DNA of 64,000 nt, from NCBI GenBank assembly GCA_942492905.1, contig OW818657.1:3456022-3520021 (forward strand), read 5' to 3'. This stretch comes from an uncultured Verrucomicrobiota bacterium (GTDB lineage Bacteria; Verrucomicrobiota; Verrucomicrobiia; Verrucomicrobiales; V1-33). The notes under the pieces were generated by a model. That model saw only the letters and a list, made by a program, of their open reading frames with translations, did not search any database and was not told the origin of the DNA. Below, piece by piece: positions 10,180 through 61,572 of this stretch. The position numbers were made by a program, and so were the translations under genes. Positions within the stretch are counted from its first letter, which is position 1; the number at the start of each line of letters is the position of its first letter.

Positions 10180-13100
10180 ATGCGTTCCCTTTCCCCTGCC
10201 CTCCGCCCCGTAGGCGCTTTTTTGCTTCTGATGACCCTGACGGCCTCCGCCGTCCCGACGGCGGTGCCGGACAGCTACACCACCCCGGAGGACACTCCGG
10301 CCGGGAATACGGCGGTGGACGTGATCAATACCGGCTTTGAAGGCAGCGGGGGAGGCATCACCTTTACACTGCCCAATGCCTGGCAAATCATCGATCTGGC
10401 CACCACTGCCGCCGGGGGAACCAATACCTATCCGCAGGATGCCGCGGCCCGGCCGTGGAATGTCGCGGCCTTCGACTCCAGCACCTCCACCATCGCAGGA
10501 TGGCGCAGCGGCACCCTGCCGGTGCAGGGGGGCAGCATTGACAACGCGAATTTCAGCGCGGTCCCCGCGACTCTGACCGGACTGGTGCCCGGTGGACCCA
10601 ATACCGTGAACACCTATCTGGTGCGGAACCAGTTCACTCTGACGGCAGCTCAGGCGGCCCACCCGACCTGGGACTTCACCCTGTTGGCCGATGATGGTTG
10701 TGTGATCTACGTGAACGGAGTGGAAAAGGCCCGCCTGAATTTGCCCGTCACCCCGACCCTGAATCCCGACGATCTGAACGGGGGGACGGCGGGCGACGAG
10801 ACCAACTACACCACTCTGCAGGTGGACCTGGCCGGAGCCCTAACCGCAGGAGCGAATGTCGTGGCCATCGAACTGCACCAAAGCGCCACCAGCAGTTCGG
10901 ATGCGGGCATCGATTTCACGATGACTCCAGCGGGCGCTTCGCCCACGGCTGGTTTCACCGGGTTGGCCGATGCGTTTTTCGGAACGGCAAACGCCGTTTA
11001 TTCCGCGCAGACTTACGCCGCCACCGGTGGGTTCAATGCCACCGGTGGGCTGCGGGTGCAGATGGGCAATGTCTTCCCGACCGGGGGCAGCCAGGCGGTC
11101 TCCGGAGCATGGCGCACCACGTTCACCCTCGCCGCGCCCGCCACGATCTCGCTGGGTTTCCGGCATCGCCTGATTTCCGGTCAGGATTATGACAACAACG
11201 AATACCAGGAACTGATCTGCGATGTGGACGGGACCCAATATGGAACCGCGACTTCTCCGAGCACCCATCTGGCCGTTTCCTACCAGGTGGGCAATGGCAA
11301 TGGCGGGGGAGTCATTGATTCGGGATGGAAGCAGAGCAATTTCAACATCCCGCTCGCTGCCGGAACCCACACTCTTTCCCTCGGCGGATTTGGCATTGTG
11401 GGCTCCAGTGGTTTTGCCGGCACCGCGCAGGAATCGTTTGAAGGCTTCTTCGATGATGTCGTGCTCACCGTGCCCGGCAGTGTTTCCCTGCTGGCCAACG
11501 ATACCGGCGGGGTGGCCCCCGTCACGGCGGTGAAGGCCTCGGACCCCACTCACGGCGTGGCGACGGTAAATACCAATGGCAGTTTTGTCTATACGCCGGA
11601 AGCCAACTGGTTTGGCACAGACAGCTTCACCTACCGGGCGGTGGATGGCTCCGGGCAATCCACGCCGGGGCTGGTCACGATCAATGTGACCGCCGTGAAC
11701 GATCTCCCGCTGGCGGTCAACGATGGCCCTTTCATCACCCTGCAGGATGTTCCGCTGGTGGTGGCCACAGCCCAAGGCGTGCTGGCCAATGATTCCGATG
11801 TGGAATCCTCCCTATTGACGGCGGTTTTGGGTAATGGCCCGGCCAATGGCGTTCTCCAGCTCAATCCGGATGGTAGTTTCGCCTTTACTCCGAACAGCGG
11901 GTTTTCCGGAAACACCTCTTTCACCTATCGGGCCCATGATGGGACGGCCAACTCCTTGCCCGCCACCGTGACGATCCAAGTCACTGATGTGCCGGATGCG
12001 CCGGTGGCCAGCAATGACAGCTATACGGCGGTGAAGAACACCGCCCTCGTGGTGAATGCGACCACCGGAGGAACCACCACCGAGGAACTGCTGCCTTACC
12101 AATCCGCCGGATGGCGTTATTTCGACTCCCTGGAGCTGGCCAACCGCAATCTCGGCACGCTCTGGCGGACTGAGGCCTATACGGAGACTGCAGACTGGAA
12201 AACCGGCGCGGCGGAACTGGGTTATGGGGACGGGAATGAAGCCACCCAGATCGCCGATAATCCGGACCCGGCCTTTGATTCAGGGGCCTCCGACAAATTC
12301 GCCACTTCTTATTTCCGCCGCACGGTGGAAGTGACGGATCTTTTCAATATCACCGGGGTCCAGCTGAGTGTGATCTATGACGACGCCTGCGCTTTCTATC
12401 TGAACGGCAGCCCGGGCGGCCGCACCGGCAACCTGCCCGATCCCGTCACGCTGCCGGAACTCGCGTGGGATTATTTCCCCAACGTGGGCTCCGCGGAAGA
12501 TTCTTCGGAGACCTTCAACCTGCCCGCCTCCGTCCTCCAGTCCGGCACCAATCTGATCGCGGCCGAAGTGCACCAGAATGCCCCCTCCTCCAGCGATGTT
12601 TCGTTCGATCTCCGGCTCCGGGTGACCCGGACGATCCCCGCCGGCGTGCTGGCCAATGATTCCGATTCCGACCCCGGGCAGACCGCCACTTTGACTGCTG
12701 AGCTGGTGACCCCCCCGGCGCATGGTATTCTGACGCTCAACCCGGACGGCACCTTCACCTACAGCCCCGCCAATGGCTATACCGGTGCGGATTTCTTCAC
12801 CTACCGCGCCAAAGACACGACGAACCGCAGCTCTGCGGTCACCACTGCCAGTATCACCATTATCGACGGACCGAATGTCCCGCCGACCGCCTTGGCCGAC
12901 AGCTATCCGGCGGTGGAAGACACCCTGCTGACCATCAACGCGGCAGCCGGCGTGCTGGCCAATGATACCGATGCCGAGGGCGATGCCTTCACGGCCATCG
13001 TGGCGACTCCGCCGGCCAATGGCACCCTGACTCTCAATCCCAACGGCTCCTTTACCTATCAGCCCACCGCCCATTTCAATGGCACCGACAGCTTCACCTA

Positions 13101-16100
13101 CCAGGCCCGGGACAGCCGTGCCTCGTCTCCTGCCACCGTCACCCTCACGGTGGCTCCCGTGAATGATCTGCCGGTCGCCGTGGGGGATACTTATACCGGC
13201 GACCCCGGGGTGCCCTATGTGGTCTCCGCCGCCGAAGGAGTCCTCGTCAACGACTTCGATGTGGATAGCGGCACCATCCTGACCGCCCAGCTGGTCACCC
13301 CGCCAGCCAGTGGCACCCTGATCCTGAATGCGGACGGCTCCTTCTCCCTGACTGCCGCCACCGGGGGTAATTATACCTTCACCTACCGGGCCAAAGACGC
13401 CGGAAGCCAGTCGCCTCCCGCCACCGTCACCGTCTCGCTGAATGCGGTACCGGTCACCCAGGCCGATGCCTACAGCCTCGACGAAGACGTCCCGCTCAAC
13501 GTGACCGCCGCTCTGGGGGTGCTGAAGAACGACAGTGATCCGGAAGGGCAACCCCTCACGGCCCAACTGATCAGCAATGTGCAGCAAGGTACCCTCAGCC
13601 TGAATCCTGATGGATCGTTCCTCTATACGCCCGCTTCGAACTTCCAGGGGAGCGACAGTTTCACCTACCAGGCCTACGACGGCACCCGTCAGTCGGGACC
13701 GGTGACGGTCAACCTCACAGTGAACCCGGTCAATGATCCGCCGGGGACGGTGGCCGACACCTATGGAGTCCGGGTGGATAGCCCCCTCCAAGTCGCTGCC
13801 GCCAATGGCGTGCTGCGCAATGACACCGACGCAGAGAATTCGCCGCTTTCCGCCTTGCTGGTGAGCCCTCCGGCCAGCGGCGTGCTGGCACTCAACAGCG
13901 ACGGTTCCTTTTCCTACACCCCGGAAGCAGGCTTCAGCGGAACCCTGACCTTCAGCTACCGCGCCAGCGATGGAACGGCCCAGTCTGCCCTCACCACGGT
14001 AACCTTGAACGTCTCCACTTTCCTCAACACGATCGCCATCAGCGAGATCATGTACAATCCTCCTGGAGCGACGGGCGTGAGTGAGGAATTCCTCGAAATC
14101 CATAACTATGGCGACGCTTCCGTGGACCTGACCGGCTGGAGATTCACCAAAGGTGTCGACTACGCCTTTCCGGCCAGCCTGCTGGTGCCGGGCCGTGGCT
14201 ACCTTGCCATCCCGGCCGACCGGGCGGCCTTCACTGCCAAATATCCCACCGCCAGCAACGTCACAGCCACAGGTTGGGGCGCTGGAGGCAGCCTTGGGAA
14301 TGGCGGCGAACTGGTCCGTCTGGTCAATGCGCTGGGCGAGAAGGTGGATGAAGTCGAATATGCCGATGAAGGCGACTGGGCGGTGCGCAAAATCGTGGGC
14401 GTCTGGGATTCCACCAACACGCCAGGGGATGCTCCGCCCAACCTGGATACCGATCCCGGCCTGGAATGGATCACCGCAGCCGATCCCGATCCGGAACTCG
14501 GCAATGCCGGAGGCAGTTCGCTGCAACTCCGCAATCCTGCCCTCACCAATGACTCCGGTCAAAACTGGGAGGCAGGCCTGCCGACTCCCGGGTCTTCCAA
14601 CAGCGTCGTGGCCCAGGCGGATTCCGCGCCGCTCATCCGCGGAGTGACCCATAGCCCTGCGGTTCCCAACCGGACCCAGCAGGTTTTCGTGACGGCCCAA
14701 ATCGAGGACGAACTCCCCGCCGGCTCCAGCGCCACCGTGTTCTACCGGACGTGGCTGCCTTCCGGGGCCACTCCGGCGACGGCCTTCGCCCAGGTGGTGA
14801 TGCAGGACAATGGCCTGCGCCAGGATGGAGCCGCAGGGGATGGAGTGTATGGCGCGGTCATCCCCGCCCAGGCGCTCAACACCGTCGTGGAATTTTATGT
14901 CCAGTCCACCGATGCGGGTTCCAACAGCCGCACCTGGCCAGCGCCCACCCTTGATCTCGCCGGAGCCAATCCTTCGCAGAACGCCAACTGCCTCTATCAG
15001 GTGAATGAAGAAGTCTGGACAGATCACCGCCCGCTTTATCAAATGGTGATGACCGGGGCGGACAACGCCTCGTGGAATGCGGGGCTCGCCAACCGCACCA
15101 GCAATGTCGCGCCGAATACCACGGTCATCTTCCGCACCGGGAACCGGTTTGATGTGCGCTACCGCGGGGCAGTGCGCACCCGCGGCAACAGCAGCCGGGG
15201 TGACACGCCCCTCAATCTCCGGATGGATATTCCCAAGGACAATAACTGGAATGGCCGTACCGCCTTCACCCTGAACTACAAATTTTCCTACAGCCAATTC
15301 CTTGGCAGCCGCCTCTTTGAATCCGCCGGAGTTCCCACCGAAAAAGCCGGAGTAGTGGGAGCCCGCATCAATGGGGTGAACCGTCTGCTGGATCAAAACG
15401 GCAACCGGACCTTTGGTTATTACTGCGATCTGCTCCCCCGGGGCGGTGACACCATCAAAGAGTGGTTCCCCGGCAACGATGACGGGAACGGGTATGGCAA
15501 AATCCGGGGCAATGTGCGTTGGGGCGTCTCCACCCTGCCCACCATCGGGGCCGCCGGTTACGCGGTGGGCGGCTACGTCAACGAAGGGTATAACAAGCAG
15601 ACCAACGCCGCCCAGAACGACTGGACGGATCTCGACGCCTGGATCCAGTCGCTCAATGCCGGCACCATCGCCAACTTCGATTCCACCATCGCCAGTACGG
15701 TGGATGTGGACCAGTGGTGCCGCTTCCTCGCCCTCTCCACCATCGTCAACCACGCGGAAACCAATATGGCCAACGGCGATGACGATGACTACTCGGTCTA
15801 CTTTGGCGCCACCGACCGGCTTTGCCGCATCATCGCCCACGATCTTGATACCTGCTTCAACCTGAATGCGATCGGACTTGGCGACGAACAGGCGCCACCC
15901 ACCATGACCATCTATCAGTGCACCGCCCCCAACTATCCCACGGACGGAGCCACCCTTCCGCAGATGGACAAATTCTACCGCAATCCGGTGCTGGGCCGGA
16001 AGTTCAAGGCGTCCTTGCGTTACTATCTGGACACGATCTTTGCCAAGCCAACGTTTGATGCCACGGTGGACCAACTGCTGGACCCTCAATGGATGGGCAC

Positions 16101-19100
16101 CCAGTTCACCCCTGATGGCAACACCATCCGCAGCCATATCAAGGCGTTCCTCGATACCCGTCGCGCCACTATCGAAACCTTCCTGCCCACCGCCTTCACC
16201 GCGACCACCAACCTGACCGTGCAAAACGAGTTGCCGCGCAGCACGTCCGCCACCGACCTCGGCGGCCTGGGTGGGAAGATTGATCCAGCCCGCACCGCAT
16301 CCGTCACCGTCAACGGCGTGCCCGTGACCACTAATCCCTACGGTTCCACCGCGTCGACAGACAACACTTGGAGTGCCGGCACCGCTATCACGCTCCGTCC
16401 GGGGCTTAATACCCTGGTTTGTGAAGCCCGGGACGAAAGCGGGCTGGTTTTTGAAACCCTTACCGTGACGATTTGGTATGACGCCATTGGCGTGAACCGG
16501 AGCGGTACCCTCGCTTCAAACGAATCCTGGACCGCGGCCTCCGGTCCCTACAACATAACGTCCAGCCTGACGGTGCCCAACGGAGTCACCCTCACCATTC
16601 AACCGGGCACCACGGTCTTCCTCGCGGCCGGAGCCAATCTCACCGTGGCAGCGGGCGGCAATCTGGTGGCCCCAGGCACGGCGGCTTCTGGAATTACCCT
16701 GGCCCGGCTGCCCTCCGGCACCGTCAATTGGGGCGGTCTGATCGTGAATGGCGGGACGGCGCAGCTAAGTTATGTGTCCTTCGCCAACAATGCCTCCACC
16801 GCCCTCCACTCCCAAAACGGAGCCAATCTCACCCTGGACCATCTGACCTTCAACAACACCGGAGTGCAATATCTCTCCCTCGACGGCAGTTCCTTCACTG
16901 TCAGCAACTGTATCTTTCCCACTTCCACAGCAGGATTTGAACCCGTCCACGGTACGGATGGCATTGCTCCCGGGGGACGCGGCATCATCCGCAACTGCTG
17001 GTTCGGCAAGACGCAGGGTTACAATGACAGCATCGACTTCAGCGGCGGCAACCGCCCCGGCCCCATCCTGCAGGTCCTCAACTGCGTCTTCAACGGTTCC
17101 GATGATGACATTCTCGATCTCGACAGCACCGATGCCTGGATTGAAGGCAACATTTTTATGCACTGCCACCGGAGCGCGGCATCCCCCGACAGTGCCAGTG
17201 CGGTCTCCGGCGGCGCCGACAATTCGGCTTACAGCCAGGTCACTGTGATCAACAATCTGATCTACGACTGCGACAATGCCGTCACCATGAAACAGGGCAA
17301 CAGCCAACCGAACGGCAATTCCGCCGTCCTGCTGAATAACACCATCGTCCGCACCACGAGGATCGGCGGCATCGACACCGGCTCCGGAGTAGTGAACTTC
17401 GACGACGACAACGTGACCGGCGAAGGGAAAGGCATGTATCTCGAAGGCAACCTGATCTGGGAGGCGGAAAGCCTGGCGCGGAATTACACCCCTGCCCTCA
17501 GCCAACTCACCTTCAACACCAACCTGCTGCCGTTGGCCCCACCGGCCGGAGCCTCGTCGAGCGGCAACCTGGTGGCTGATCCGATGCTGAATCTCGCGCT
17601 CATCACCACGCCGGCCACTGCCACCGCGGAACAAGTCATCGCCGCCCTGACACCGCAGCTTTGTTCCCCCGCGATCGGTGGTGGGTTACTGGGCCGCACC
17701 CTGGGAGCCGATCTCTCCCGGACCGGCATCACCGTGCAGGCCCTGCCCGCTTCCACCTGGCCTTCCAGTGTCACCCTCGGGGTAGGCCCGGGAGGCAGTT
17801 TCACGCCCACCAGTCAGGTTGCCTGGACATATGGATTCACTCACTATCGATACCGTCTCGATGGCGGTGCGCTCAGTGCCGAGACGCCCGTGGCCAATCC
17901 TCTGGCATTGACTGGCCTGACACCTGGGGCGCACATCCTGCGGGTCGAAGGCAAAAACGACGCCGCCTTCTGGCAGGAAACGCCCACGGAGATCGCCTTC
18001 ACGGTGGCGGCCAATGCCCCGACCGTGGTGTTCAGCGAAGTGCTCGCCGACTCCACCAGCGGACCGGACCTGATCGAACTCTACAATTGGGGCGCCACCG
18101 CCACCAATGTGTCCGGCTGCCAGATCTCCGACGATCCCACCATTCCCGGCAAATTTACCTTCCCCGCCCTGACCCCTCCGATCCCGGCCGGGGGCTATCT
18201 GGTGCTCGACTCCACCCAGCTAGGCTTCAATCTCAGCCAGGGCGGTGAAACCCTGCACTTGGCCAGTTCCTCCGGCGATGCGCTGGATACCGTCGTCTTT
18301 GGTCCCCAGCTCACCGATTTCTCCATCGCCCGCAGCGGCACGGCCTGGCGATTGGCGACACCCACTCCCGGCAGCGCCACGGCGGCGGTTTGTGCGCTCG
18401 GATCCGGGCGTACCCTGCGTCTGAACGAGTGGCTGGGATCCAACGATATCATCGTTCCCGGTGATTTTGTGGAACTTTACAATCCCGATGCGCTCCCAGT
18501 GGATCTCGGGGGCTACCGGTTGAGTCAGGACTTCCGCAACGAGCCGACCCAGAGTCAATTTCCTCCTCTGAGTTTCATCGCGGGAAGCGGATTTCTCGAA
18601 TTGACCGCCGATGGCGATGCCGCCGCGGGCGCGGATCACCTGAGCTTCAAGATCTCACGCATCCGCGACGCAATCGCCCTGCTCGATCCTTCCGCCAACC
18701 TCGTGGACAACGTGATCGTGCTGCCGGGCAATCCGGACGTTTCCCAGGGACGCACTCCGGACGGGGCCGTCACCACCACCTACCTGGCCCTGCCCACTCC
18801 CGGTTTTTCCAATGGCAGCGATCTCACGGCGGACACCGCGGTGATGAATGGATTACGCATTACCGAAATCATGTTCGACCCGGCCGCCGGCCCCGAGTAC
18901 CTTGAATTCAAAAACATCAGCGGCACGCCTCTGACCATCACGGGCGTCAATTTCGGCAGTGGTCTGACCTTTACCTTCCCGGCCACCACGATCACCGCCG
19001 GGGGGTATGCGGTGATCACTCAAAACCTCGCATCCTTCAATTCCCAGTATCCTGGGGTCACCGGCGTGCAGTGGTCCGCGGGCCGTCTTGACAACAATGG

Positions 19101-19950
19101 GGAAAGCCTCCGGATCACCACCAGCACCTACGGTCTGGGGATTCTCGACTTCCGTTATGAGGGCAACTGGTATCCCGAAACCCGCAGCGGAGCGTCCCTC
19201 GAAATTGTCGATCCCACTGCCGACCGCACCTCCTGGAGCGATCAGGCAAGCTGGCAGCCCAGCGTGCCAAGCCCCGGCGGCCCTTCCCCATTCGGAGTCC
19301 TTGCCCCCGCCGATGTTACCGTGACCCTGCCCCGTCCGGCCATCCTAGGGGCCTGGGTCTCTCCCGGCACCCATGCGGCCGGCGACATCAGCCTGGCATG
19401 GCGGAAAGTGAGCGGTCCGGGCTCCGTCACTTTCACCGCTCCAGCTAACAAGGTCACCGATGCAATCTTCTCCCTGCCCGGCATTTATGAACTGAGCATC
19501 ACCGCCACCCCTCCCGGAGGCGGACCGGAAGCCATTGATAGCGTCATCGTCACTGCCGCGGAAGACTATGCCAGTTGGGTCGCCCGGCGGCTTAGTTCCG
19601 CCAGTGCCGCCAATCAGCTGCCGGAAGCGGATGCCGACGGGGATGGTCAGGTCAATCTTATCGAATACGCGATGGGGACCAATCCCGCGGCATGGAGTGC
19701 GGGACCTGAACTGATCATCAGCGGCGGACATCTGGCCCTGCGCTATCCGGTTTCCAGACTGATCGATCCTGCGGTGCAAATCATCCCGCAGCTTTCCCCC
19801 GGTCTGACCACCTGGTTCGAAGGTGCCGCCTTCCTGGTGGACACTATCACTCAACAGACAGATTCCATCGAAACCCATGTCGTCCAGGACGTGAATCCCC
19901 TTGGCATGGAGGGCCGGAGTTACCTCCGGCTGAAGGTGGTGGCCCCTTGA
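10180..19950 (+). CDS. giant secreted multidomain surface protein (3256 aa): HQ..SSD modules, about 7 cadherin-like 'tandem-95' repeats, lamin-tail domains, CotH kinase-like domain, right-handed beta-helix, conserved C-terminal tail
   Basis: Signal peptide MRSLSPALRPVGAFLLLMTLTASA. Repeats have the form NDxPxAxxDxY..GVLANDSD..L.A.L...P.NG.L.LNPDGSF.YTP...F.G.DSFTYRA.D. LTD motifs (ISEIMYNPPG..EFLEIHNYG..DLTGWRF). CotH motifs (RGNSSRG, NYKFSYSQFLGSRLFESAGVP). PbH1-like beta-helix repeats. Confidence 0.9.
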   Translation: MRSLSPALRPVGAFLLLMTLTASAVPTAVPDSYTTPEDTPAGNTAVDVINTGFEGSGGGITFTLPNAWQIIDLATTAAGGTNTYPQDAAARPWNVAAFDSSTSTIAGWRSGTLPVQGGSIDNANFSAVPATLTGLVPGGPNTVNTYLVRNQFTLTAAQAAHPTWDFTLLADDGCVIYVNGVEKARLNLPVTPTLNPDDLNGGTAGDETNYTTLQVDLAGALTAGANVVAIELHQSATSSSDAGIDFTMTPAGASPTAGFTGLADAFFGTANAVYSAQTYAATGGFNATGGLRVQMGNVFPTGGSQAVSGAWRTTFTLAAPATISLGFRHRLISGQDYDNNEYQELICDVDGTQYGTATSPSTHLAVSYQVGNGNGGGVIDSGWKQSNFNIPLAAGTHTLSLGGFGIVGSSGFAGTAQESFEGFFDDVVLTVPGSVSLLANDTGGVAPVTAVKASDPTHGVATVNTNGSFVYTPEANWFGTDSFTYRAVDGSGQSTPGLVTINVTAVNDLPLAVNDGPFITLQDVPLVVATAQGVLANDSDVESSLLTAVLGNGPANGVLQLNPDGSFAFTPNSGFSGNTSFTYRAHDGTANSLPATVTIQVTDVPDAPVASNDSYTAVKNTALVVNATTGGTTTEELLPYQSAGWRYFDSLELANRNLGTLWRTEAYTETADWKTGAAELGYGDGNEATQIADNPDPAFDSGASDKFATSYFRRTVEVTDLFNITGVQLSVIYDDACAFYLNGSPGGRTGNLPDPVTLPELAWDYFPNVGSAEDSSETFNLPASVLQSGTNLIAAEVHQNAPSSSDVSFDLRLRVTRTIPAGVLANDSDSDPGQTATLTAELVTPPAHGILTLNPDGTFTYSPANGYTGADFFTYRAKDTTNRSSAVTTASITIIDGPNVPPTALADSYPAVEDTLLTINAAAGVLANDTDAEGDAFTAIVATPPANGTLTLNPNGSFTYQPTAHFNGTDSFTYQARDSRASSPATVTLTVAPVNDLPVAVGDTYTGDPGVPYVVSAAEGVLVNDFDVDSGTILTAQLVTPPASGTLILNADGSFSLTAATGGNYTFTYRAKDAGSQSPPATVTVSLNAVPVTQADAYSLDEDVPLNVTAALGVLKNDSDPEGQPLTAQLISNVQQGTLSLNPDGSFLYTPASNFQGSDSFTYQAYDGTRQSGPVTVNLTVNPVNDPPGTVADTYGVRVDSPLQVAAANGVLRNDTDAENSPLSALLVSPPASGVLALNSDGSFSYTPEAGFSGTLTFSYRASDGTAQSALTTVTLNVSTFLNTIAISEIMYNPPGATGVSEEFLEIHNYGDASVDLTGWRFTKGVDYAFPASLLVPGRGYLAIPADRAAFTAKYPTASNVTATGWGAGGSLGNGGELVRLVNALGEKVDEVEYADEGDWAVRKIVGVWDSTNTPGDAPPNLDTDPGLEWITAADPDPELGNAGGSSLQLRNPALTNDSGQNWEAGLPTPGSSNSVVAQADSAPLIRGVTHSPAVPNRTQQVFVTAQIEDELPAGSSATVFYRTWLPSGATPATAFAQVVMQDNGLRQDGAAGDGVYGAVIPAQALNTVVEFYVQSTDAGSNSRTWPAPTLDLAGANPSQNANCLYQVNEEVWTDHRPLYQMVMTGADNASWNAGLANRTSNVAPNTTVIFRTGNRFDVRYRGAVRTRGNSSRGDTPLNLRMDIPKDNNWNGRTAFTLNYKFSYSQFLGSRLFESAGVPTEKAGVVGARINGVNRLLDQNGNRTFGYYCDLLPRGGDTIKEWFPGNDDGNGYGKIRGNVRWGVSTLPTIGAAGYAVGGYVNEGYNKQTNAAQNDWTDLDAWIQSLNAGTIANFDSTIASTVDVDQWCRFLALSTIVNHAETNMANGDDDDYSVYFGATDRLCRIIAHDLDTCFNLNAIGLGDEQAPPTMTIYQCTAPNYPTDGATLPQMDKFYRNPVLGRKFKASLRYYLDTIFAKPTFDATVDQLLDPQWMGTQFTPDGNTIRSHIKAFLDTRRATIETFLPTAFTATTNLTVQNELPRSTSATDLGGLGGKIDPARTASVTVNGVPVTTNPYGSTASTDNTWSAGTAITLRPGLNTLVCEARDESGLVFETLTVTIWYDAIGVNRSGTLASNESWTAASGPYNITSSLTVPNGVTLTIQPGTTVFLAAGANLTVAAGGNLVAPGTAASGITLARLPSGTVNWGGLIVNGGTAQLSYVSFANNASTALHSQNGANLTLDHLTFNNTGVQYLSLDGSSFTVSNCIFPTSTAGFEPVHGTDGIAPGGRGIIRNCWFGKTQGYNDSIDFSGGNRPGPILQVLNCVFNGSDDDILDLDSTDAWIEGNIFMHCHRSAASPDSASAVSGGADNSAYSQVTVINNLIYDCDNAVTMKQGNSQPNGNSAVLLNNTIVRTTRIGGIDTGSGVVNFDDDNVTGEGKGMYLEGNLIWEAESLARNYTPALSQLTFNTNLLPLAPPAGASSSGNLVADPMLNLALITTPATATAEQVIAALTPQLCSPAIGGGLLGRTLGADLSRTGITVQALPASTWPSSVTLGVGPGGSFTPTSQVAWTYGFTHYRYRLDGGALSAETPVANPLALTGLTPGAHILRVEGKNDAAFWQETPTEIAFTVAANAPTVVFSEVLADSTSGPDLIELYNWGATATNVSGCQISDDPTIPGKFTFPALTPPIPAGGYLVLDSTQLGFNLSQGGETLHLASSSGDALDTVVFGPQLTDFSIARSGTAWRLATPTPGSATAAVCALGSGRTLRLNEWLGSNDIIVPGDFVELYNPDALPVDLGGYRLSQDFRNEPTQSQFPPLSFIAGSGFLELTADGDAAAGADHLSFKISRIRDAIALLDPSANLVDNVIVLPGNPDVSQGRTPDGAVTTTYLALPTPGFSNGSDLTADTAVMNGLRITEIMFDPAAGPEYLEFKNISGTPLTITGVNFGSGLTFTFPATTITAGGYAVITQNLASFNSQYPGVTGVQWSAGRLDNNGESLRITTSTYGLGILDFRYEGNWYPETRSGASLEIVDPTADRTSWSDQASWQPSVPSPGGPSPFGVLAPADVTVTLPRPAILGAWVSPGTHAAGDISLAWRKVSGPGSVTFTAPANKVTDAIFSLPGIYELSITATPPGGGPEAIDSVIVTAAEDYASWVARRLSSASAANQLPEADADGDGQVNLIEYAMGTNPAAWSAGPELIISGGHLALRYPVSRLIDPAVQIIPQLSPGLTTWFEGAAFLVDTITQQTDSIETHVVQDVNPLGMEGRSYLRLKVVAP
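10372..10925 (+). other. HQ..SSD module copy 1 (in the 3256-aa protein)
   Basis: TYLVRNQFTL .. LADDGCVIYVNGVE .. VVAIELHQSATSSSDAGIDF. Confidence 0.6.
11470..14020 (+). repeat. array of about 7 cadherin-like / tandem-95-type repeats of ~95 aa (protein level)
   Basis: Seven successive units each contain GVL[AVKR]ND[ST]D .. NG.L.LN.[DN]GSF.Y[TQS]P .. [DT][ST]F[TS]YRA.D and end in V[NT].VND.P. The third unit is split by an inserted module at 12070..12632. Confidence 0.8.
12088..12627 (+). other. HQ..SSD module copy 2, nested inside a tandem-95 repeat
   Basis: AGWRYFDS..DWKTGAAELGYGDG..TSYFRRTVEV..IYDDACAFYLNGSP..LIAAEVHQNAPSSSDVSFDL. Confidence 0.65.
14035..14600 (+). other. lamin-tail domain (LTD) 1
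   Basis: IAISEIMYNPPGATGVSEEFLEIHNYGDASVDLTGWRFTKG..GNGGELVRLVNALGEKVDEVEY.. Confidence 0.75.
14990..16190 (+). other. CotH (spore-coat protein H-like atypical kinase) domain
   Basis: LYQVNEEVW..YQMVMTG.. VRYRGAVRTRGNSSRGDTPLNLRMD..FTLNYKFSYSQFLGSRLFESAGVPTEKAGVVGARINGV..DDYSVYF..HDLDTCF. Confidence 0.7.
16498..17470 (+). other. right-handed parallel beta-helix region
   Basis: Short repeats rich in N/G/T/V (NLTVAAGGNLV, GLIVNGGTAQLSYVSFANN, LTLDHLTFNNTG, FTVSNCIF, IIRNCWF, LQVLNCVFNGSDDD, WIEGNIF, VTVINNLIYDC, AVLLNNTIV). Confidence 0.65.
18019..19280 (+). other. three further lamin-tail domains (LTD 2-4)
   Basis: VVFSEVLADSTSGPDLIELYNWGATATNVSGCQISDD; LRLNEWLGSNDIIVPGDFVELYNPDALPVDLGGYRLSQD; LRITEIMFDPAAGPEYLEFKNISGTPLTITGVNFGSG. 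Each ends in a ..PTPG.. motif. Confidence 0.75.
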
Positions 19951-20345: not shown

Positions 20346-23300
20346 ATGAAACCACCCTCGACCGTTCCAATCTTCGCCGCCTGCGCCGCAGCGGTGTTCT
20401 CCTTTAATCTTCCCAGCCAGGCGCAGCAGTTGCTGATTCCTGAAAACCATTCCTGGACCTTCCTGCACCCTATGGGCACGCTGCCCCCGCGGGCAGACAC
20501 GACTCCAGACCCGGATTTCGACACCTCATGGTATCTGCCGGAGGCGCAGTTTCTGACCACCTATGACGGCCCCAGCTTCTCCGCGGCCACCTTCGGGGAC
20601 CCTCTGACTCCCACCAGTGCGGACTCCGGACCCGGCATCGGACCGTTCGCCTACGGCGGGGTGGATGGAATTGCCGCCCCGGGCACCACCCTGACTTTGC
20701 CTGAGACGGGCAACCGCTATGCTTCCTATTACCGCACCGAATTTACGGTGCCCGCAGGAGGACTGATCGAACCCTCCCTCCGCATGATCTGTGACGATGG
20801 CAGTTTCATCTACCTCGATGGCGTGCTCATCGCCACGGTGAATGTTTCGGATGGCGTGACTGACACCTACACTTCGTTTGCCACCGATGCCACGAACACC
20901 GAACTTGGCTTCACCTTCCCATTGCGGGTCGCCGGCACCCTGCCGGGTGGTTCCCCCGGCGATGTGAAGGTCATCGTGCCCATGCCGGCACTCACCGCCG
21001 GCTCGCACACCTTGGCGGTCTCCGTCCACAACAATGCCGCCACCTCCAGCGACATGGGACTGCTCATGGAGCTGTCTGCCCTCGACCCTGACACCTCCAC
21101 CATCCACGCAGTGGTCACCGATGTGGTGCGCGATCTCAAGGGTACCCCGGTCGATATTACGGACGACGAATTTTCCTTCAAAGTCACCCTGAGCGGGAAT
21201 AATACGGGAGCCACCTGGACCAGCGATAATCCCATTGTCACCGGGGCCTACGGGGTGGCCACCACCATGGGGCCTTACAGTGCCGTCGGTCCGGCCTTTG
21301 TCACCTTCACGACAGCAGCAAATGCAACCAGCCAGACCACGGTCACCGTGGATCCGCCCACGGCCTTCACCACTTTGGTGAACTACAACCAAAGCTGGCA
21401 GGTGATGAACCCGCTGGCTGGGGTCCTGCCGCCGCGCCCTGTCGGCGGGGACGCGGACACGAATTTCGAGGAAACATGGTATCTCAAGGAAGATAGCTTC
21501 ATCAATCAATATGATGGACCGAATTTCGGCACCAATGGCGTAGGGGGAAGTTATGAAGCCATCACTGGTCCCGGGCCTTTCGCGGTCGGCACTGTCGATG
21601 GCATTGCGGCCGGTCAGCCAGTGGGAGCGGCGGGCACGACGGTGACGCTGCCAGCCAGTCCCAACCGGCTTACCAGCTATTATCGCACGACTTTCACGAC
21701 GACCCAGCCCATGAGCCTCGTCACCTTTGATCTGCTCTGCGATGATGGGGTTTTCATCTACCTCGACGGCAATCTGGTCGCGCAGGAAAACATGCCGGGG
21801 GCTCCAGGCTTCACCGCCTTGGCCGCAGCCGCCCGCGGCGAAACGCTGATCACCACGATTGATCTCTCGCAGGCCCCTGGGGGCAATGTGATTGCCACGG
21901 TCCCCGGATTGGCTCCAGGCGTGCATACTCTCGCGGTCTCGGTCCACCAGAGTGCAAATAACTCCAGCGATTTCGGCCTGGCCCTCAAAATGTCAGGAAT
22001 CGAAGTGGTGGGGCAACCAGTGATCGAGGCCTCAGTATCCGATGTGGTCCGGAGCGAGGCCGGCACCCCGGGATTACCTGATGACGACACTTTCACCTTC
22101 AAAGTGACCGTTAACGGCGCCAATGCCGGAACGACTTGGACAAGCAACTCCATCCCTGCCACGGGCAGTTATGGCGTGGCCACCACCTTTGGGCCTTTCC
22201 CTGTCATTGAGGGGACCAGGACCGTGCAATTTGCAGCATCGATTGATCCTGGCACTGTCACCAGCGTCACCGTCACCCCGCCCGCCAGCACCATCGCGGC
22301 CGTGTTCAGTGGCGTCACCCGGAATAACAATGGCACGCCAGTGGATCCGCGTGACGACACTATGACCTTCGACGTGACCGTCACCGGGACTTTCCTGAGC
22401 ACCCAGTGGACCAGCAATGTCACCGCGCCGAATGCCGGAAACTATAATACGGTCACCCCGTTCGGCCCCTTCCCAGCTACTGGACCTCTGGCTGTGGTCC
22501 TGACGGATTCGATTGATTTTGCCCGGACCGTAAGTTTCACGGTACAACCCCCGCGTTATATTCCGCCTGTCGAAATGGTTCCCTATTCCCAATCCTGGCA
22601 AGTTATGAATCCGCTCGGCGGTGTGCTGCCGGATGGTCCTGGCGGGCCCGATGACGACTTCGACACCACCTGGTTCCTGCCTGAAGCCAGCTTCGCCGTC
22701 CAGTACAACGGACCCACCTTCGGCACCGGCGGAGTAGCCGGAAGTTACGAGACCCTCGCAGGCCCCGGTCCCTTTGCGGTCGGCGGCATTGATGGTCTGG
22801 CCACAGGCACCACGATCGGCCCAGTGGGAACGGCCATTACGCTTCCGGCCACCGCCAGCCGCTTCACCAGCTATTACCGCACGACCTTCACCACCACTCA
22901 GGCGATCGATAATGTGAAGTTCGATCTGCTCTGCGACGATGGCGTCTTCATCTACCTCGACGGCGTCCTGGTAGCTCAGGACAATATGCCGGGGACCGAC
23001 ACCTTTGCCGCCCTCGCTTCCGCAGCCCGGGGCGAAACCCTCATCAATACCATTGATCTCTCCGCACTGCCGGGAGGCAATGTGGTGGCCACGGTGCCCA
23101 GCATCCCTGCCGGCACCCATACCCTCGCCGTGTCAGTGCATCAGAGTGCTGCGGACTCGAGCGACAAAGGACTGGCCCTCACGTTGTATGGACGTTCGGC
23201 TACCGGCGTCGTGGTGACTCCGGTCCTCGGCACTGTCACCCGCAACTTGAATAACACGGTGACCACCGACGACGATACCTTCCGGTTCTCCATCACCGTC

Positions 23301-24344
23301 AATGCCACCAATGGAGGAGCTTCCGGCTGGATCGGCAACGATGTGCCCGCCAGCGGCACCTATGGCGTGTCCACCGAGTTCGGTCCGTTCCCGGTCAGTG
23401 CGTCTCCGAAGTCCTTGACGTTCACTGACACCACGGATGATCTCGCCCGGGCCACCCTGATTGTCACTCCACCGCCCATCTTCGGCCTGACCACGTTCGG
23501 TGGCATCATCAACCCGGTTGTCCCCACCCTTCCCCTGCCGGCCAACTGGACGGCCAATGGAGCCACCATCACCCACAGCACCAATGTGGGCGTCGCCGCT
23601 CCCGGCACCCAGATCTCCTCAGCGGTGGTGAACCTCTCCGGAGTCACCGGCCCGGTTCAGTTCCGCATGGATCTGGTGGCAGCTGATACCAGCGCAGGCT
23701 CGAACTTCGAAGCCGCAGACACCGTGCTGGCCGAGTTGGTCCTCAATAATGGCGTCAGCGAACAGCGGATCAACCTGATCTCCAACTTCGACAGCAGTGG
23801 CGACGGGGTCCTCAACGGGTTCACCGGAGTCGATGCCGCGGACTACAATGCCAACAAAGACCAGGATGAACTGAATGGAGCATTCCTGAATGCTGAAGAC
23901 CCTGCGAACTACACCTTCGCCCTCTCCAGCGTCATTCCCGACGACATCATCTCCGCCCAGGTCGTGGTCACCGTCGTCTCGGTCGGTGGCACCGAGTCCA
24001 TCACGCTCTCGAATGTCAGCTTCTCGTCATTCGTGGCGGAAGTGGATACCGATGGGGATGGTCAGACGGACTCCTCGGAAGCGCTGGCCGGCACCAGCCC
24101 GACAGACCCTGGGGACGTCCTGCGGGTCACCGGCCTCACTCCCAACGGAGCAGGGCTTTCCGTGACCTTCCCTTCCAAAATCGGGCGCAATTACCGCATC
24201 GAGACCAGCACCAGGCTGGTGAGCGGCTGGGCTCCGCTGGGCGATGTCATCGCCGGCACCGGAGCGGACATTTCGGCGGATCTCGCGGAAGTCCCGGTGC
24301 CGGGTGAAGACAGATATTTCCTCCGGGTCCGGGTCGTTCCCTAG
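20346..24344 (+). CDS. secreted repeat protein (1332 aa) with three HQ..SSD modules alternating with Ig-like domains and a conserved C-terminal tail
   Basis: Signal peptide MKPPSTVPIFAACAAAVFSFNLPSQAQQ. Three ~205-aa modules; copies 2 and 3 look highly similar by eye (I estimate roughly 70% identity, not computed). Tail DTDGDGQTD..GRNYRIETSTRLVSGWAPL..DRYFLRVRVVP. Confidence 0.85.
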   Translation: MKPPSTVPIFAACAAAVFSFNLPSQAQQLLIPENHSWTFLHPMGTLPPRADTTPDPDFDTSWYLPEAQFLTTYDGPSFSAATFGDPLTPTSADSGPGIGPFAYGGVDGIAAPGTTLTLPETGNRYASYYRTEFTVPAGGLIEPSLRMICDDGSFIYLDGVLIATVNVSDGVTDTYTSFATDATNTELGFTFPLRVAGTLPGGSPGDVKVIVPMPALTAGSHTLAVSVHNNAATSSDMGLLMELSALDPDTSTIHAVVTDVVRDLKGTPVDITDDEFSFKVTLSGNNTGATWTSDNPIVTGAYGVATTMGPYSAVGPAFVTFTTAANATSQTTVTVDPPTAFTTLVNYNQSWQVMNPLAGVLPPRPVGGDADTNFEETWYLKEDSFINQYDGPNFGTNGVGGSYEAITGPGPFAVGTVDGIAAGQPVGAAGTTVTLPASPNRLTSYYRTTFTTTQPMSLVTFDLLCDDGVFIYLDGNLVAQENMPGAPGFTALAAAARGETLITTIDLSQAPGGNVIATVPGLAPGVHTLAVSVHQSANNSSDFGLALKMSGIEVVGQPVIEASVSDVVRSEAGTPGLPDDDTFTFKVTVNGANAGTTWTSNSIPATGSYGVATTFGPFPVIEGTRTVQFAASIDPGTVTSVTVTPPASTIAAVFSGVTRNNNGTPVDPRDDTMTFDVTVTGTFLSTQWTSNVTAPNAGNYNTVTPFGPFPATGPLAVVLTDSIDFARTVSFTVQPPRYIPPVEMVPYSQSWQVMNPLGGVLPDGPGGPDDDFDTTWFLPEASFAVQYNGPTFGTGGVAGSYETLAGPGPFAVGGIDGLATGTTIGPVGTAITLPATASRFTSYYRTTFTTTQAIDNVKFDLLCDDGVFIYLDGVLVAQDNMPGTDTFAALASAARGETLINTIDLSALPGGNVVATVPSIPAGTHTLAVSVHQSAADSSDKGLALTLYGRSATGVVVTPVLGTVTRNLNNTVTTDDDTFRFSITVNATNGGASGWIGNDVPASGTYGVSTEFGPFPVSASPKSLTFTDTTDDLARATLIVTPPPIFGLTTFGGIINPVVPTLPLPANWTANGATITHSTNVGVAAPGTQISSAVVNLSGVTGPVQFRMDLVAADTSAGSNFEAADTVLAELVLNNGVSEQRINLISNFDSSGDGVLNGFTGVDAADYNANKDQDELNGAFLNAEDPANYTFALSSVIPDDIISAQVVVTVVSVGGTESITLSNVSFSSFVAEVDTDGDGQTDSSEALAGTSPTDPGDVLRVTGLTPNGAGLSVTFPSKIGRNYRIETSTRLVSGWAPLGDVIAGTGADISADLAEVPVPGEDRYFLRVRVVP
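20440..23192 (+). repeat. three HQ..SSD modules (about 20440..21080, 21381..21999, 22581..23192), protein-level internal triplication
   Basis: Each copy has SW.[FV][LM][HN]P.G.LP .. W[YF]L.E..F...Y[DN]GP.F .. GPGPFA.G..DG[IL]A .. SYYRT.FT .. [IL]CDDG.FIYLDG.L[IV]A .. HTLAVSVH[QN]....SSD.GL. Confidence 0.8.
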
Positions 24345-27680: not shown

Positions 27681-30600
27681 TTATTTGGTGATCGGCTGGG
27701 ATTGTCGGAGATAGGCGAACAGGTGCTGGATGTCCTCGTCACTCATGCCCTCCAGCAGGCCGGGAGGCATGAGGCTGAAACCGGCGGGCGTCAGCGTGGC
27801 CACATCGTCGCGGCGGAGATTGATGTCGGCCCCGTCGAATCCGCGCAGCACCAGGTTTCCGGCATCCTGATCCGCTAGGAATCCACTGAGAGTGCGCCCA
27901 TCCTTGGTGGTAACGAGATGATTGGCGAAGCCTTCGCGGATCTCCGCGTTGGGATCAATGATACTGACCAGCATGGTGCCGAGATCATCGCGCTGATAGC
28001 TGGTCAGGTCCGGGCCGATTTTCCCGCCTTTGAAAAACAGGGTATGACAGGCAGCACATTTTGCCATGTAGAGCGGCTCGCCCTTGTAGGGATCGCCAGG
28101 TTTCGCCGCGATGATGGCAGTCACCTGCTGAATACGGGGGCGCAGTGCCGCGCTGGCCGGAGGGAGCGTCGCTGGGAAATGCTGGTCCAGCAGCGTCTTC
28201 AACGCATCGTCCCGGTGCAACCGCAGGCGGCTGAGCACATCCGCAGAAAAGCCAGTCTTCGCCACCCGGCCCGTGGCCACGGCCTCCAGCAGGAACCGGC
28301 TCCAGGCGAGTCGGCTTGTCAGCAGATTGAGCGAGGCGGATTGGACCGGTGCCGGAAGCTCTGTCCAGGATTGCAGCACCCGCTCAGCTATTTCGGAATC
28401 ATCATAGATTTGCAGCGCGGTGCAGGCCGCCATCCGCAGTTCCACCGGACCGTCGGCCTTGGCAATGACCAGCAATTCCGGTACTGCGGGCGGATGCTTC
28501 ACTTCACCGAAAACCCTGACCACGGCGAGACGGTCGGCAGGCACGGCTTTGGCATCCTTGAGCAAGGCCAGGGCCTCTGTCAGGGCCGCCGGTTCCGTGT
28601 GACGCACCCGCATCGTCAGAGTCATCTGGCCACCCGCTGCCAGCGCCTTCAGGAGTTCCTCCGGCAGCACCGGCAGGGACCGGCCCTCGAAGGCCTCACC
28701 AAATCCCTGCATCAGCGCCTTCCGCTCTGCTGCTCCCGGCGCCCGGTCCAGCAAGGTGGCACAGGCGATCCATTCCTGGCGGGTCCCGGGCTCCGCAAAA
28801 CGCCGCATGATGCGCCACAACAGGTGCTTCGCCACCAGCGGCGAACGTTGGAAGGCGGCATCCTCAAACAAAGCCAGCACCGACTCCCGGTCGCGGGCAC
28901 AGTGTGATTCAATGACAAACCACGCCATCAACGGGATAAAGGCGTCTGCTTCATCCCCGCTGCGGCCGGCGACAGCTTTCGTTAGACGCAAGGCATCCGT
29001 CACCCCCAGCCGCCGGGCCGTGGAAAGCATCTGGCAACGCACCTCCGCCTCCGGCTCGGTGGCCGCCAACCAGGTGACGGCTTCCATCACCGGCGGGGAA
29101 AGGGATCGTGCATCCCCGAGCAGGCGGATCGTCCAGGCGCGCACCATCGGAGCGGGGTGCTGTAGAGCGCGCAGGGCCAGCGGTTCGGTCAGGCGTCCCA
29201 TTTGGCCGAGGGCCCAGAGCGCCTCCAGAGCGGGATGCGTGGACTGCCCCGCCAGTTCCGCTTCCAGGAGTGGCGCGGCCTCACGTTTCTCGGCCAGCAG
29301 GCGCACCGCCGTCTGGCGCTGCCACACATTCGGATGCGCCAACAGTTTCACCAACTGCTCCGCGGTCTTTTTGGACAAGTCCACTTCCCGCTCCAACGGC
29401 AGATCCTTGCCGCGCAGCCGGTAAATCCGGCCGGTCGCGGGGTCGATCTGACTTTGATAGTTCTGGCCATGCGCGATGTATTCCTCGCGGAAATCAGCCA
29501 CCAACAGCGAACCGTCCGGCGCATTGGCCAGATACACGGGCCGGAAGGTCAGATCGTCCGAGTGCATAAAATTCCCGGCATCAGTGGTGTGGAAAGTGGA
29601 GCCCTCGCGGTACCGCCCCGCGGCTATGATGTTATGGTGCAACGGATCCGCGGCCGCGAATTGGCCGCGCCAACGCGCCGGCAGCGCAGTGCCTTCGGCC
29701 ATCAGGGTCATGTGGGAGAAGCGGGCCACCGGATGGGTGCTCCGCATCATCGGCAGCTCGCCAAAGGCATAGGGATTCGGGGCCGGGCCGAATTTGCCGG
29801 CATCCTTCCCCTGTTTCAGATAGAGCCCGTCCTGGATATGATGCCAGCCCCGCGTGTCGCCACCATTGTGTCCCGTGAAAAGCCTGCCTTCGGCATCAAA
29901 GGATATCCCGAAGGTGTTGCCGCTGCCGTCCGCGAAAATCTCATAGAAGCGCTTTTCCGGATGATACCGCCAGACCATGCAACCTTCCACAAAAACGCCC
30001 GGTGACCCGGCAGCATCAAGGCCGGGGCGCGTCACGCGGCTGGTGGTGGTGCTGCCCTGGGCGCCATAAATCCAGCCATCCGGCCCCCACGACAGGCCAT
30101 TGGCCACACTGTGGGTATCCTCCAGACCGAAACCCTGGAGCCGCACTTCCGGCGGGCCATCCGGCACATCATCCGCATCTGCATCGGGATAAAAAACAAG
30201 ATAGGGTGGATTCATCACCCAGATTCCACCGTGCCCCGTGAGCACCGCATTGGCCATGTTCAGACCTGTCAGGACCTGTTTGTGGGCATCATATCGTCCA
30301 TCGCCATCGGTGTCTTCGTGCACAGAGATGACATCCGCGCCCGGAGTCTGGTCCGGCGGCGGGGGCGGCACCCGGTCATACTTGGAACGATAATATTTGT
30401 CCCGACTGATCATTTTCACCCCGGCTGGATAAGGATACTGCCGGTATTGCGCCACCCAGAGCCGGCCACGGGCATCCCAACTGACCTGAGTGGGCTGCGC
30501 CACCTCCGGCTCATGGAGCAACTCCTCTACTATCAGATCCGGCTCCGTCTTCAGCAGCCGCAACGCCTCCTCCGGCGGCACAAACTTCCCGCGCTCCGGG

Positions 30601-52781: not shown

Positions 52782-52918
52782 AAACGTAATAGGACAGAGA
52801 CCTTGCCGGAGTAGCAACCTGATTTGTGCAGAGAGTTATTCTGGCATCCCCTGGCCTGCTGAAACAATGAATGATCTTGAAATGGACAGGATTTCTCCTG
52901 CCTATATGTTGGGCCCCC

Positions 52919-60843: not shown

Positions 60844-61572
60844 ATGCCGGAAAATGAACTCAGTACCCCGCAATTTCCAGCCACCCGCTGGAGCGTGGTC
60901 CTGACCGCCTCCGGCTATGGGACGGATGCCCGTGCCGCCCTGGAGGAACTCTGCCGGCTTTATTGGTTCCCCCTCTACGCCTTCGCCCGCCAGCGCGGAT
61001 GTGGCCCTGAGGATGCGGAGGATGAAGTCCAGGACTTTCTTTCCCAAGTGGCCGCCGGAGACTTCCTCGCCGGCGCGGCCCCGGACCGAGGCCGTCTGCG
61101 CACCTACCTGCTCGCCGCCTTTCAGCACGATCTCATCGATGCCCATCGCCGCGCCCATCGCCTGAAGCGGGGCGGACGCGCGCAATTCGTGACCATCGAA
61201 GCCATGGAGGCCGAGACCCGCTTCAACAGTACCCCCATGAGCAATTCCGCGGTGGCGGCCTACGACCGTGCCTGGGCCATGACCTGCCTTGATGCCGCCA
61301 TGACCGCTCTCGAGGCCGAATATTCCACCCGGGAACGCGCCGCGCTCTTTCAAACCCTGCGCTCGTTTCTCGATCCCGTGCATGATGGCGACTACACGGT
61401 GGCCGGCCAAGCCACCGGCCTGGGGCCCAACGCCCTCCGCCAGGCCGTCTTCCGGCTCCGTCAACGGTTCCGCGCTCATCTGCGGCAATGCATTGCCGGC
61501 ACCCTCGATCATCCATCCGAAATTCTCATCGATGAGGAATTGACCGCCCTGCGCAACGCCCTCTCGGCCTGA
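60844..61572 (+). CDS. ECF-like sigma-70-family RNA polymerase sigma factor (PVC/myxobacterial 'TRWS' type)
   Basis: N-terminal PATRWSVVLTA..ALEELCRLYWFPLYAFARQRGCGPEDAEDEVQDFL (region 2). KRGG linker. Region 4 GLGPNALRQAVFRLRQRFRAHLRQCIAGTL. Confidence 0.85.
   Translation: MPENELSTPQFPATRWSVVLTASGYGTDARAALEELCRLYWFPLYAFARQRGCGPEDAEDEVQDFLSQVAAGDFLAGAAPDRGRLRTYLLAAFQHDLIDAHRRAHRLKRGGRAQFVTIEAMEAETRFNSTPMSNSAVAAYDRAWAMTCLDAAMTALEAEYSTRERAALFQTLRSFLDPVHDGDYTVAGQATGLGPNALRQAVFRLRQRFRAHLRQCIAGTLDHPSEILIDEELTALRNALSA

Follow-up and report, generated by a model that had tools for sequence, protein, structure and literature searches.

The route by which Verrucomicrobiota and other bacteria of the PVC (Planctomycetes, Verrucomicrobia, Chlamydiae) group bring their many giant adhesin-like proteins to the cell surface is not known to us. 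The question is raised by a stretch of 64,000 nucleotides from an uncultured Verrucomicrobiota bacterium (assembly GCA_942492905.1, contig OW818657.1, positions 3,456,022 to 3,520,021), referred to here as the window. The window has a G+C content of 62% and contains four very large open reading frames (ORFs), P1 to P4, which encode proteins with Sec signal peptide-like N-termini and with endings that resemble one another. A first-pass annotation of the window had described these endings as a shared, unrecognised C-terminal tail that might be a sorting or anchoring signal. Our analysis confirmed that observation and partly supported its interpretation. We conclude with high confidence that every one of the giants terminates in a single copy of a domain whose family spans Verrucomicrobiota and has no Pfam-A or NCBIfam model, and we regard this domain as a credible candidate for a surface-anchoring or sorting module.

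The four tails in the window

P1 lies at 10180..19950 on the forward strand and encodes 3256 amino acids (aa), in which full-length Pfam and NCBIfam scans identified Big_9, cadherin-like, LTD, CotH, and beta-helix domains. P2 (20346..24344, forward strand, 1332 aa) has a passenger without any Pfam or NCBIfam domain. P3 (46291..50496, reverse strand, 1401 aa) contains NxxGxxAF/DUF7453 choice-of-anchor repeats and immunoglobulin (Ig) domains, and P4 (52919..60727, reverse strand, 2602 aa) contains DUF11 repeats, LamG, and PKD. By these scans, the four passengers were unrelated to each other. Read directly, the N-termini of all four giants looked like Sec signal peptides, as previously reported, and the previous descriptions of the passengers were reproduced for P1, P3, and P4. 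The HQ..SSD modules described for P2 were not: its passenger (20346..24104, forward strand, 1,250 aa) had zero Pfam or NCBIfam matches and no internal repeat detectable by BLAST, and just two HQSA..SS sites were present, approximately 400 aa apart.

In translation, P1 ends in ..GRSYLRLKVVAP (including ..SYLRLKVVAP), P2 in ..DRYFLRVRVVP, P3 in ..SLQFLRVKASKP (including ..QFLRVKASKP), and P4 in ..ERFYRIFEIVP, each followed by a stop codon. These endings were exactly as first quoted. The pattern [FYW][FLYIMV]R[LVI].{3,5}P$ matched P1 to P4 alone among the 118 stop-to-stop ORFs that reach 150 aa or more, with a chance expectation of 0.0075 matches per window when the last 30 residues of each ORF were shuffled. 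The pairwise kinship of the tails also held. Those of P1 and P3 were 36% identical and had the motif W...ADxDGDGQxN..E[YF]A...P in common; those of P2 and P4 shared G[RK]xYx[IM][EQ][ST]S..L..W, with one residue more in P2. Orthologues of P1 terminated in LRLKV[VI]AP, and a fragment of a P2 orthologue terminated in YFLRVRVVP.

The tails occur in two forms. The long form of approximately 135 aa, found in P1 and P3, consists of a Trp helix, an EF-hand/TSP3-like DxDGDGxxNxxEY loop, and a six-strand sandwich. The short form of approximately 70-75 aa, found in P2 and P4, is the sandwich only and is FN3-like. The P1 domain occupies 19546..19947 (forward strand, 134 aa) and ends in YLRLKVVAP-COOH. The P3 domain occupies 46294..46704 (reverse strand, 137 aa) and ends in QFLRVKASKP-COOH; the tail start previously assigned to it, 46705, was out of frame. 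The short-form domains lie at 24105..24341 in P2 (forward strand, 79 aa, six strands, ending in YFLRVRVVP-COOH) and at 52922..53143 in P4 (reverse strand, 74 aa, ending in RFYRIFEIVP-COOH). Just 5' of the P2 tail, at 24045..24110 on the forward strand, is a TSP3-like Ca-loop motif (VDTDGDGQTDSSEALAGTSP) that matched Pfam TSP3_bac with an E-value of 0.0045 and 17.2 bits, under the cut-off of 25.

A hidden Markov model (HMM) of the beta part of the long form was trained on 90 sequences, none of them derived from the window. It matched P1 at 1e-22 and P3 at 1.2e-10, but reached P2 and P4 with independent E-values (i-E) of only 0.11 and 1.4. By themselves these scores are suggestive of homology among all four tails, and a four-way relationship would have been rejected on them. 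Support for that relationship came from an independent short-form HMM and from hhalign. The short-form HMM, built from 15 short tails in loci fetched from other genomes and from no window sequence, matched P2 (i-E 2.1e-10) and P4 (i-E 3.7e-7, covering the last 73 aa) terminally and over nearly the whole model, and it also matched many long-form tails in register. In hhalign, the short seeds and the long-form beta part aligned with a probability of 95.9% (E 5e-9); the 68 aligned columns begin at the first core strand and run as far as the FYRV/FLRL strand. A TSP3-like loop precedes many short forms. The short-form seeds had been picked by their terminal motif and the other profiles drawn from C-terminal examples, so the FYRV/FLRL strand was partly selected by construction; the G..Y.le.S.dL..W part was unselected. 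Taken together, these profile comparisons indicate that the four tails form one superfamily, a continuum from short (approximately 70 aa) to long (approximately 135 aa).

Extent, position, and terminus of the domain family

A word-index search recovered two orthologues only from a single tail and five matches from the short-form alignment. Because such an index lacks the sensitivity needed for domains this short and divergent, an exhaustive HMMER search of 1.84 billion cluster representatives (50%-identity clusters) was used instead, with a profile of the P1 and P3 tails and two P1 orthologues. This search returned 6,201 representatives at E ≤ 1e-3, part of which have TSP3-type repeats only, and 236 at E ≤ 1e-10. 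The family consensus was Y..W...f....aDPDGDG..NLLEYALG..P (~20 aa) L.l.Y.R......Y.vE.S.DL..W (~25 aa) D..P....RRF[LIM]R[LV][KR]V..P-COOH. Its core signature of approximately 70 aa is L.l.[FW]...G..Y.[lv][eq].S.dL..W ... rr[FY][LIM]R[LV][kr]V..P-COOH, to which the long form adds aDpDGDG..NllEYAlG..P.

Position was counted in 152 sequences, the best 150 of the 6,201 and the two P1 orthologues, which gave 112 near end-to-end domain matches. Of these complete matches, 93 ended 5 or fewer residues from the C-terminus, 2 ended at 6-30 residues, and 17 were internal, mostly as the first of a tandem pair. The terminal copies were uniform at their ends. The Arg was present in 85 of 90, an aromatic residue stood two residues before it in all 90, and exactly five residues followed the x-x-R-x motif in 58 of 90. 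Pro was the last residue in 59 of 93, the others ending mostly in Q, N, E, L, or D.

An independent sample came from a pattern scan in which each GTDB species was represented by one genome and from which 80 loci (1.2 Mb) were fetched. Nearly all of the loci were labelled Verrucomicrobiota, among them Verrucomicrobiales, Opitutales, Chthoniobacterales, Limisphaerales, Akkermansiaceae, Haloferula, and Luteolibacter; the exceptions were one Lentisphaeraceae, one 'PVC group', one Enterobacteriaceae bin, and two 'uncultured bacterium'. Judged by these labels, the family appears almost confined to Verrucomicrobiota. In the fetched DNA, complete matches to the beta-part HMM (n = 74) were terminal in 68 cases, near-terminal in 1, and internal in 5. 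For the short-form HMM, 74 of 95 matches were terminal. The two HMMs together placed a terminal tail on 90 locus ORFs, with a median length of approximately 1,200 aa and a maximum of 3,439 aa, and each of fifteen loci had two or three tail genes. Pro was last in 47 of the 90, compared to 12.6% of 533 other long ORFs, a background inflated by antisense ORFs of GC-rich DNA (odds ratio 7.6, p = 8e-16). A signal-peptide-like N-terminus was found by a crude hydrophobicity test in 57 of 78 complete tail ORFs, compared to 119 of 506 ORFs of the background; in several ORFs scored negative, a signal peptide can be seen behind a non-ATG start. Thus, approximately 80-90% of copies were terminal, signal peptides were enriched, the F-x-R-[LV] strand was near-invariant with just over half of the chains ending in Pro, and the orthologues of P1 and P2 kept their endings. 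Nothing was found of the kind that the first-pass annotation had named as speaking against its claim, whether a defined sorting domain, mostly internal copies, proteins mostly without signal peptides, or a terminal motif lost from orthologues.

Scans of the P1-P4 tails and of 50 family members singly gave no defined sorting or anchor domain. For the last 179 residues of P1-P4, no sorting or anchor model of Pfam-A or NCBIfam matched at E ≤ 1. Among the 50 members, Pfam returned TSP3_bac in 5 (E ≤ 0.01) and two stray DUFs; a weak DUF3999 match was seen in 2 of 50. NCBIfam returned Amuc_1099_fam in 12 of 50, plus the TSP3 proteins MtsD and CglD. Identity with Amuc_1099 (NF042425) was rejected, as the matches reached 25.5 bits or less against a cut-off of 50 and covered only a TSP3-like loop of approximately 30 residues (profile positions ~124-157 of 321). 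In a word-index search with the 50-member alignment, the best 120 of 271 matches were all 'hypothetical protein' where named, bar one 'PKD repeat protein'. Most of those 120 had no precomputed Pfam domain, and the others had ordinary passengers (PKD, F5/8 type C, fn3, Calx-beta, FGE-sulfatase, LamG, He_PIG, Ig, and others). A full-text literature search covering sorting signals, choice-of-anchor domains, and Verrucomicrobia did not turn up any description of the tail domain.

Two tails were arranged in tandem in approximately 10 of some 95 tail-bearing sequences. C-terminal tail pairs were present in P0010, P0018, P0029, P0030, P0059, P0087, P0099, P0119, P0130, and P0139, proteins of 400-1,850 aa, most of them under 920 aa, and several of these look like one small family. 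Stand-alone secreted copies were also observed. P0212 (140 aa, on a 45.8-kb contig) consists of a signal peptide and a single long-form tail domain, and P0232 (181 aa) has approximately 30 extra residues between the two. In L014 (9447-11741) and L009 (10415-12706), a 760-aa protein encoded directly after a tail-bearing gene has a signal peptide, an N-terminal short-form tail (i-E ~1e-19), and approximately 640 aa of unrelated sequence, an arrangement kept in two metagenome-assembled genomes.

Predicted fold and comparison with known domains

AlphaFold2 modeling of the P1 tail with 50 family members gave a mean predicted local distance difference test (pLDDT) score of 96.3 and a predicted template modeling (pTM) score of 0.87. 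The model has two helices, one bearing the Trp and one after the Asp-rich loop, followed by six strands. On the forward strand, helix 1 with its invariant Trp corresponds to ~19567-19590, the EF-hand/TSP3-like loop (D29-E40) to 19630-19665, and the six-strand sandwich to 19708-19947. For the P2 tail, modeled with 26 members (pLDDT 85.6, pTM 0.74), six strands in the same order were obtained. The Trp helix, the single EF-hand/TSP3-like Ca2+-type loop, and the second helix of the long form are predicted to pack on the sandwich. A beta-sandwich with a Ca-binding loop had been raised earlier as a possibility; the models predict the six-strand sandwich, and the loop is present in the long form, where it may bind Ca2+. 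The models indicate that the conserved unit is a globular domain of 70-135 aa and not a short terminal signal or strand. In this respect the idea of a shared, unrecognised tail needs amending: the tails are homologous, match no sorting model, and are mostly terminal on signal-peptide proteins, but they are whole domains, and some copies lie elsewhere.

Foldseek searches of the Protein Data Bank (PDB) gave nothing at E ≤ 1e-3 for either form. The best matches of the long form were Ig C1-set and cytokine-receptor FN3 domains (query TM-score, TMq, 0.3-0.44). Those of the short form were mostly FN3 (cytokine receptors, tissue factor, tenascin-type scaffolds, and monobodies; TMq 0.45-0.62, E ≥ 0.04). 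The long-form profile matched only calmodulin EF-hand loops in the PDB, aligned to DxDGDGxxNxxEY. The short-form profile gave weak matches only, to a cohesin-containing protein, a discoidin/CBM32-type chitosanase module, and an Fn3-like protein, with E-values of 0.001-0.06 for discoidin/CBM32 and cohesin. The domain is new to Pfam-A and NCBIfam, and no solved structure is close to it.

The likeness to FN3 (PF00041) lies in the fold class. The short-form HMM matched domains of P0039 and P0142 at approximately 1e-6, with its L.l.W / Y.v. / FYRV strands aligned to B, C, and F of genuine fn3 domains. The P0039 domain scored 31.6 bits against Pfam fn3, over the threshold, and the P0142 domain scored 21 bits (cut-off 25). 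In the scan in which P0039 served as control, the tails themselves gave no fn3 match even at E ≤ 10. Strand F of these domains, 'YFYRIRA', aligns with 'RFYRV' of the tail; however, fn3 goes on to a G strand, whereas the tail proteins stop (six strands compared to seven). The tails also differ in having their own S.DL..W and rrF[LIM]R[LV]kV..P-COOH signature and in being strongly C-terminal. From these alignments and models, we infer that the tail is an FN3-like sandwich that ends just past the F-equivalent strand.

A second likeness is to bacterial TSP3 (PF18884) and EF-hands. The long form, and the stretch 5' of many short forms, carry DxDxDGxxNxxE followed by a helix. Matches were obtained to TSP3_bac, to calmodulin EF-hand loops, and to the part of Amuc_1099, MtsD, and CglD that resembles TSP3, all of them weak and below cut-off. 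In contrast to a TSP3 array, the tail has a single loop inside a larger domain, with putative Ca2+ binding. It likewise differs from type I dockerins, which have two tandem 22-residue Ca-binding segments compared to one loop per tail domain, and Pfam dockerin had no match in the P1-P4 tails or the 50 members.

The C-terminal domains (CTDs) of the type IX secretion system (T9SS) of Bacteroidota are small Ig-like sandwiches that stand at the very end of a wide range of large Sec-dependent cargoes; they are lineage-restricted and fall into two classes. The tails resemble the CTDs (TIGR04183/PF18962 and type B TIGR04131) in being mostly terminal, predicted Ig-like sandwiches on unrelated, often giant, putative Sec-dependent surface proteins, in being lineage-restricted, and in having two size or sequence classes. 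By that logic, the tail could be an obligate C-terminal export signal, read by an outer-membrane translocon and perhaps cleaved or attached later. The conserved distance to the free terminus and the choice-of-anchor passengers would fit such a signal. However, the tails have six predicted strands and the CTD seven, and the P1-P4 tails matched no T9SS CTD model at E ≤ 1, nor did the 50 members at E ≤ 0.01. No TIGR04183, TIGR04131, or other sorting model matched, and no T9SS CTD was among the Foldseek matches listed. N-terminal, internal, and tandem copies and cargo-less proteins are also hard to reconcile with an obligate export signal. No PorK/L/M/N-Sov-PorU/V-like machinery was present within the window, and no export machinery was found near the tail genes of the 80 loci. 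To our knowledge, no T9SS is known in Verrucomicrobiota. An obligate export signal therefore seems quite unlikely.

The tails resemble PEP-CTERM, LPXTG, and GlyGly-CTERM signals in their C-terminal place on choice-of-anchor passenger families, but the tail is a soluble folded domain without a transmembrane (TM) helix, basic cluster, or tripartite signal. No TM-like stretch was found in the last 60 aa of P1-P4, in which the maximum 17-residue Kyte-Doolittle mean was 1.4; no NCBIfam match or motif of the PEP-CTERM or LPXTG type was found in their tails; and full-length Pfam and NCBIfam scans of P1-P4 showed no 12-strand autotransporter barrel. These hydropathy and model scans agree with the first-pass annotation, which had excluded such signals and had recognised no T9SS CTD. 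Its placing of NxxGxxAF proteins in a choice-of-anchor family was also correct: P3 scored 328 bits (cut-off 50) against the choice-of-anchor model TIGR05002, which is DUF7453, the NxxGxxAF repeat, and P1 scored a borderline 25.2 bits (cut-off 25) against choice_anch_X, NF041940. Among five distinct metagenomic NxxGxxAF homologues, one ended in VPEP, a hydrophobic helix, and RRRR, with sub-threshold PEP-CTERM matches; one ended in a hydrophobic stretch and RRRK; and three had no recognisable anchor or tail. In two of the five, then, known types of anchor occupy the place that the tail has in P3. A further NxxGxxAF-related protein, of 1,054 aa, was found in L086 (Ga0255783_10000004, in the ORF containing 10001-10138). 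It has a different beta-rich C-terminal segment, ...LEPGLYTVIASGENGTTGVALVELYAIP, with Pro last, and gave no NCBIfam match and no match to the tail HMMs. P1, in which aa 1541-1564 and 1666-1966 are of note, combines a CotH kinase-like domain, four lamin-tail domains, and the threshold-level 'choice-of-anchor X' in a single cadherin/Big_9 protein.

Possible roles of the tail and surrounding genes

The tail may be a surface-retention or sorting handle, a reading to which we give about equal chances of being right or wrong. In this scheme, the signal peptide would carry each giant across the inner membrane by Sec, and the C-terminal module would then act as a shared handle by which a lineage-specific envelope component tethers otherwise unrelated adhesin-like or enzyme cargoes to the surface by their cell-proximal end, with the passenger pointing outward. 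The putative binding partner could be a receptor or a glycan of the surface, or else a machine for export or attachment. Several findings speak for a handle: the C-terminal bias, the fixed distance to the terminus, the biased last residue, the restriction to one phylum, the unrelated and mostly adhesin-like signal-peptide cargo, and the choice-of-anchor label on P3 and, at threshold, on P1. The tail was also missing from neighboring secreted enzymes. The tandem, internal, N-terminal, and stand-alone copies, together with the lack of a recurrent neighboring gene, are easier to explain by a module that binds, anchors, or retains, in the manner of SLH, dockerin, or CBM-type anchors, than by an obligate C-terminal export signal or translocation tag.

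Other findings weigh against a handle. Approximately 10-20% of copies were not terminal, being tandem, internal, N-terminal, or stand-alone; N-terminal copies followed a signal peptide in L014, L009, P0044, P0080, and P0100, and internal ones occurred in P0066 and L050. Pro was the last residue in only ~52-63% of members, and the terminal motif, though not the rest of the domain, was partly built into the profiles by the choice of seeds. No processing or secretion gene was found as a neighboring partner: all-against-all BLAST of 2,740 ORFs from the 80 loci found no gene family recurring beside tail genes. Moreover, FN3-like modules often serve as passive spacers in the extracellular proteins of bacteria. 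The tail could accordingly be an end module with a passive part to play, structural or adhesive: an FN3-like cap at the C-terminus of long, beta-rich extracellular proteins that serves as folding nucleus, stalk end, or generic ligand or glycan binder, and that was spread among Verrucomicrobiota by 3'-end domain shuffling without any role in localisation. The purely generic FN3/Ig similarity in Foldseek, the cross-match of the short-form HMM to bona fide Pfam fn3, the copies in other positions, and the lack of a partner gene beside tail genes in the 80 loci are all consistent with it. In contrast, a bias of ~80-90% toward the C-terminus over thousands of unrelated architectures is extreme for such a module. 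A chain that nearly always ends 4-6 residues past the last strand, with a biased last residue, is unexpected of a spacer, and the ordinary fn3 domains of the same proteins are internal and have the seventh strand. We consider a passive module possible, if somewhat unlikely.

Since the distance to the free C-terminus is fixed and the last residue is polar or Pro, the terminus and the strand before it may be part of a recognised surface, or may have to be shielded from periplasmic proteases that read C-termini. Prc and DegS read non-polar or aromatic C-termini. A protective cap, in which a polar or Pro ending after an amphipathic beta-strand hides the terminus from Prc/Tsp- or DegS-type proteases or PDZ sensors during the folding of very long proteins, would agree with last residues of P, Q, E, N, R, or D and with the rarity of large hydrophobics there. 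However, it explains the last few residues only and not a domain of 70-135 aa or the EF-hand-like loop, and it is compatible with the other readings and not exclusive of them; as the main role of the tail, we find it very improbable. A further proposal is that the tail is the cargo tag of a putative Verrucomicrobiota-specific pathway that exports or attaches the giants. Recognition would involve the exposed edge of the final strand together with the free C-terminus, be it Pro or polar, the G-less FN3 being completed by a strand of an outer-membrane partner. This proposal is doubtful; if true, the tail would be the functional counterpart in Verrucomicrobiota of the T9SS CTD. As a handle, the tail offers a testable means of finding its partner or pathway and possibly a display tag for engineering. 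With the HMM, the candidate surface proteome of these bacteria, which are abundant in soil, water, and the gut, can be listed, and even if the tail is a mere structural end cap, it remains a useful new domain family definition.

The tail was missing from the other secreted-looking proteins of the window, namely a GH42M-containing protein, a pectic acid lyase, two DUF7133 giants, and an LptD_N protein. The two DUF7133/HEAT/cytochrome c giants (27681..31196 and 32562..37682, both on the reverse strand) are very large, secreted, and tail-less, and the second also has two ThuA stretches; the tail is therefore not on every large signal-peptide protein of the window. The LptD_N protein (42886..45000, forward strand) is a 704-aa signal-peptide protein, the sole recognisable domain of which is LptD_N/OstA-like and C-terminal (aa 576-670). 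Between P3 and P4, at 50670..52817 on the reverse strand, is a Ser/Thr protein kinase with TPR repeats. Divergent from P4 is a 242-aa ORF (60844..61572, forward strand) with an N-terminus like that of an extracytoplasmic function (ECF) sigma factor and no Pfam match at E ≤ 1e-4. The kinase/TPR gene and this ECF-sigma-like ORF could be a regulatory pair of the giant genes. Long ORFs of up to 1,314 aa, such as 12280..16224 on the reverse strand, run antisense to the giant genes, and these appear to be stop-codon-poor frames of GC-rich repeats and not genes.

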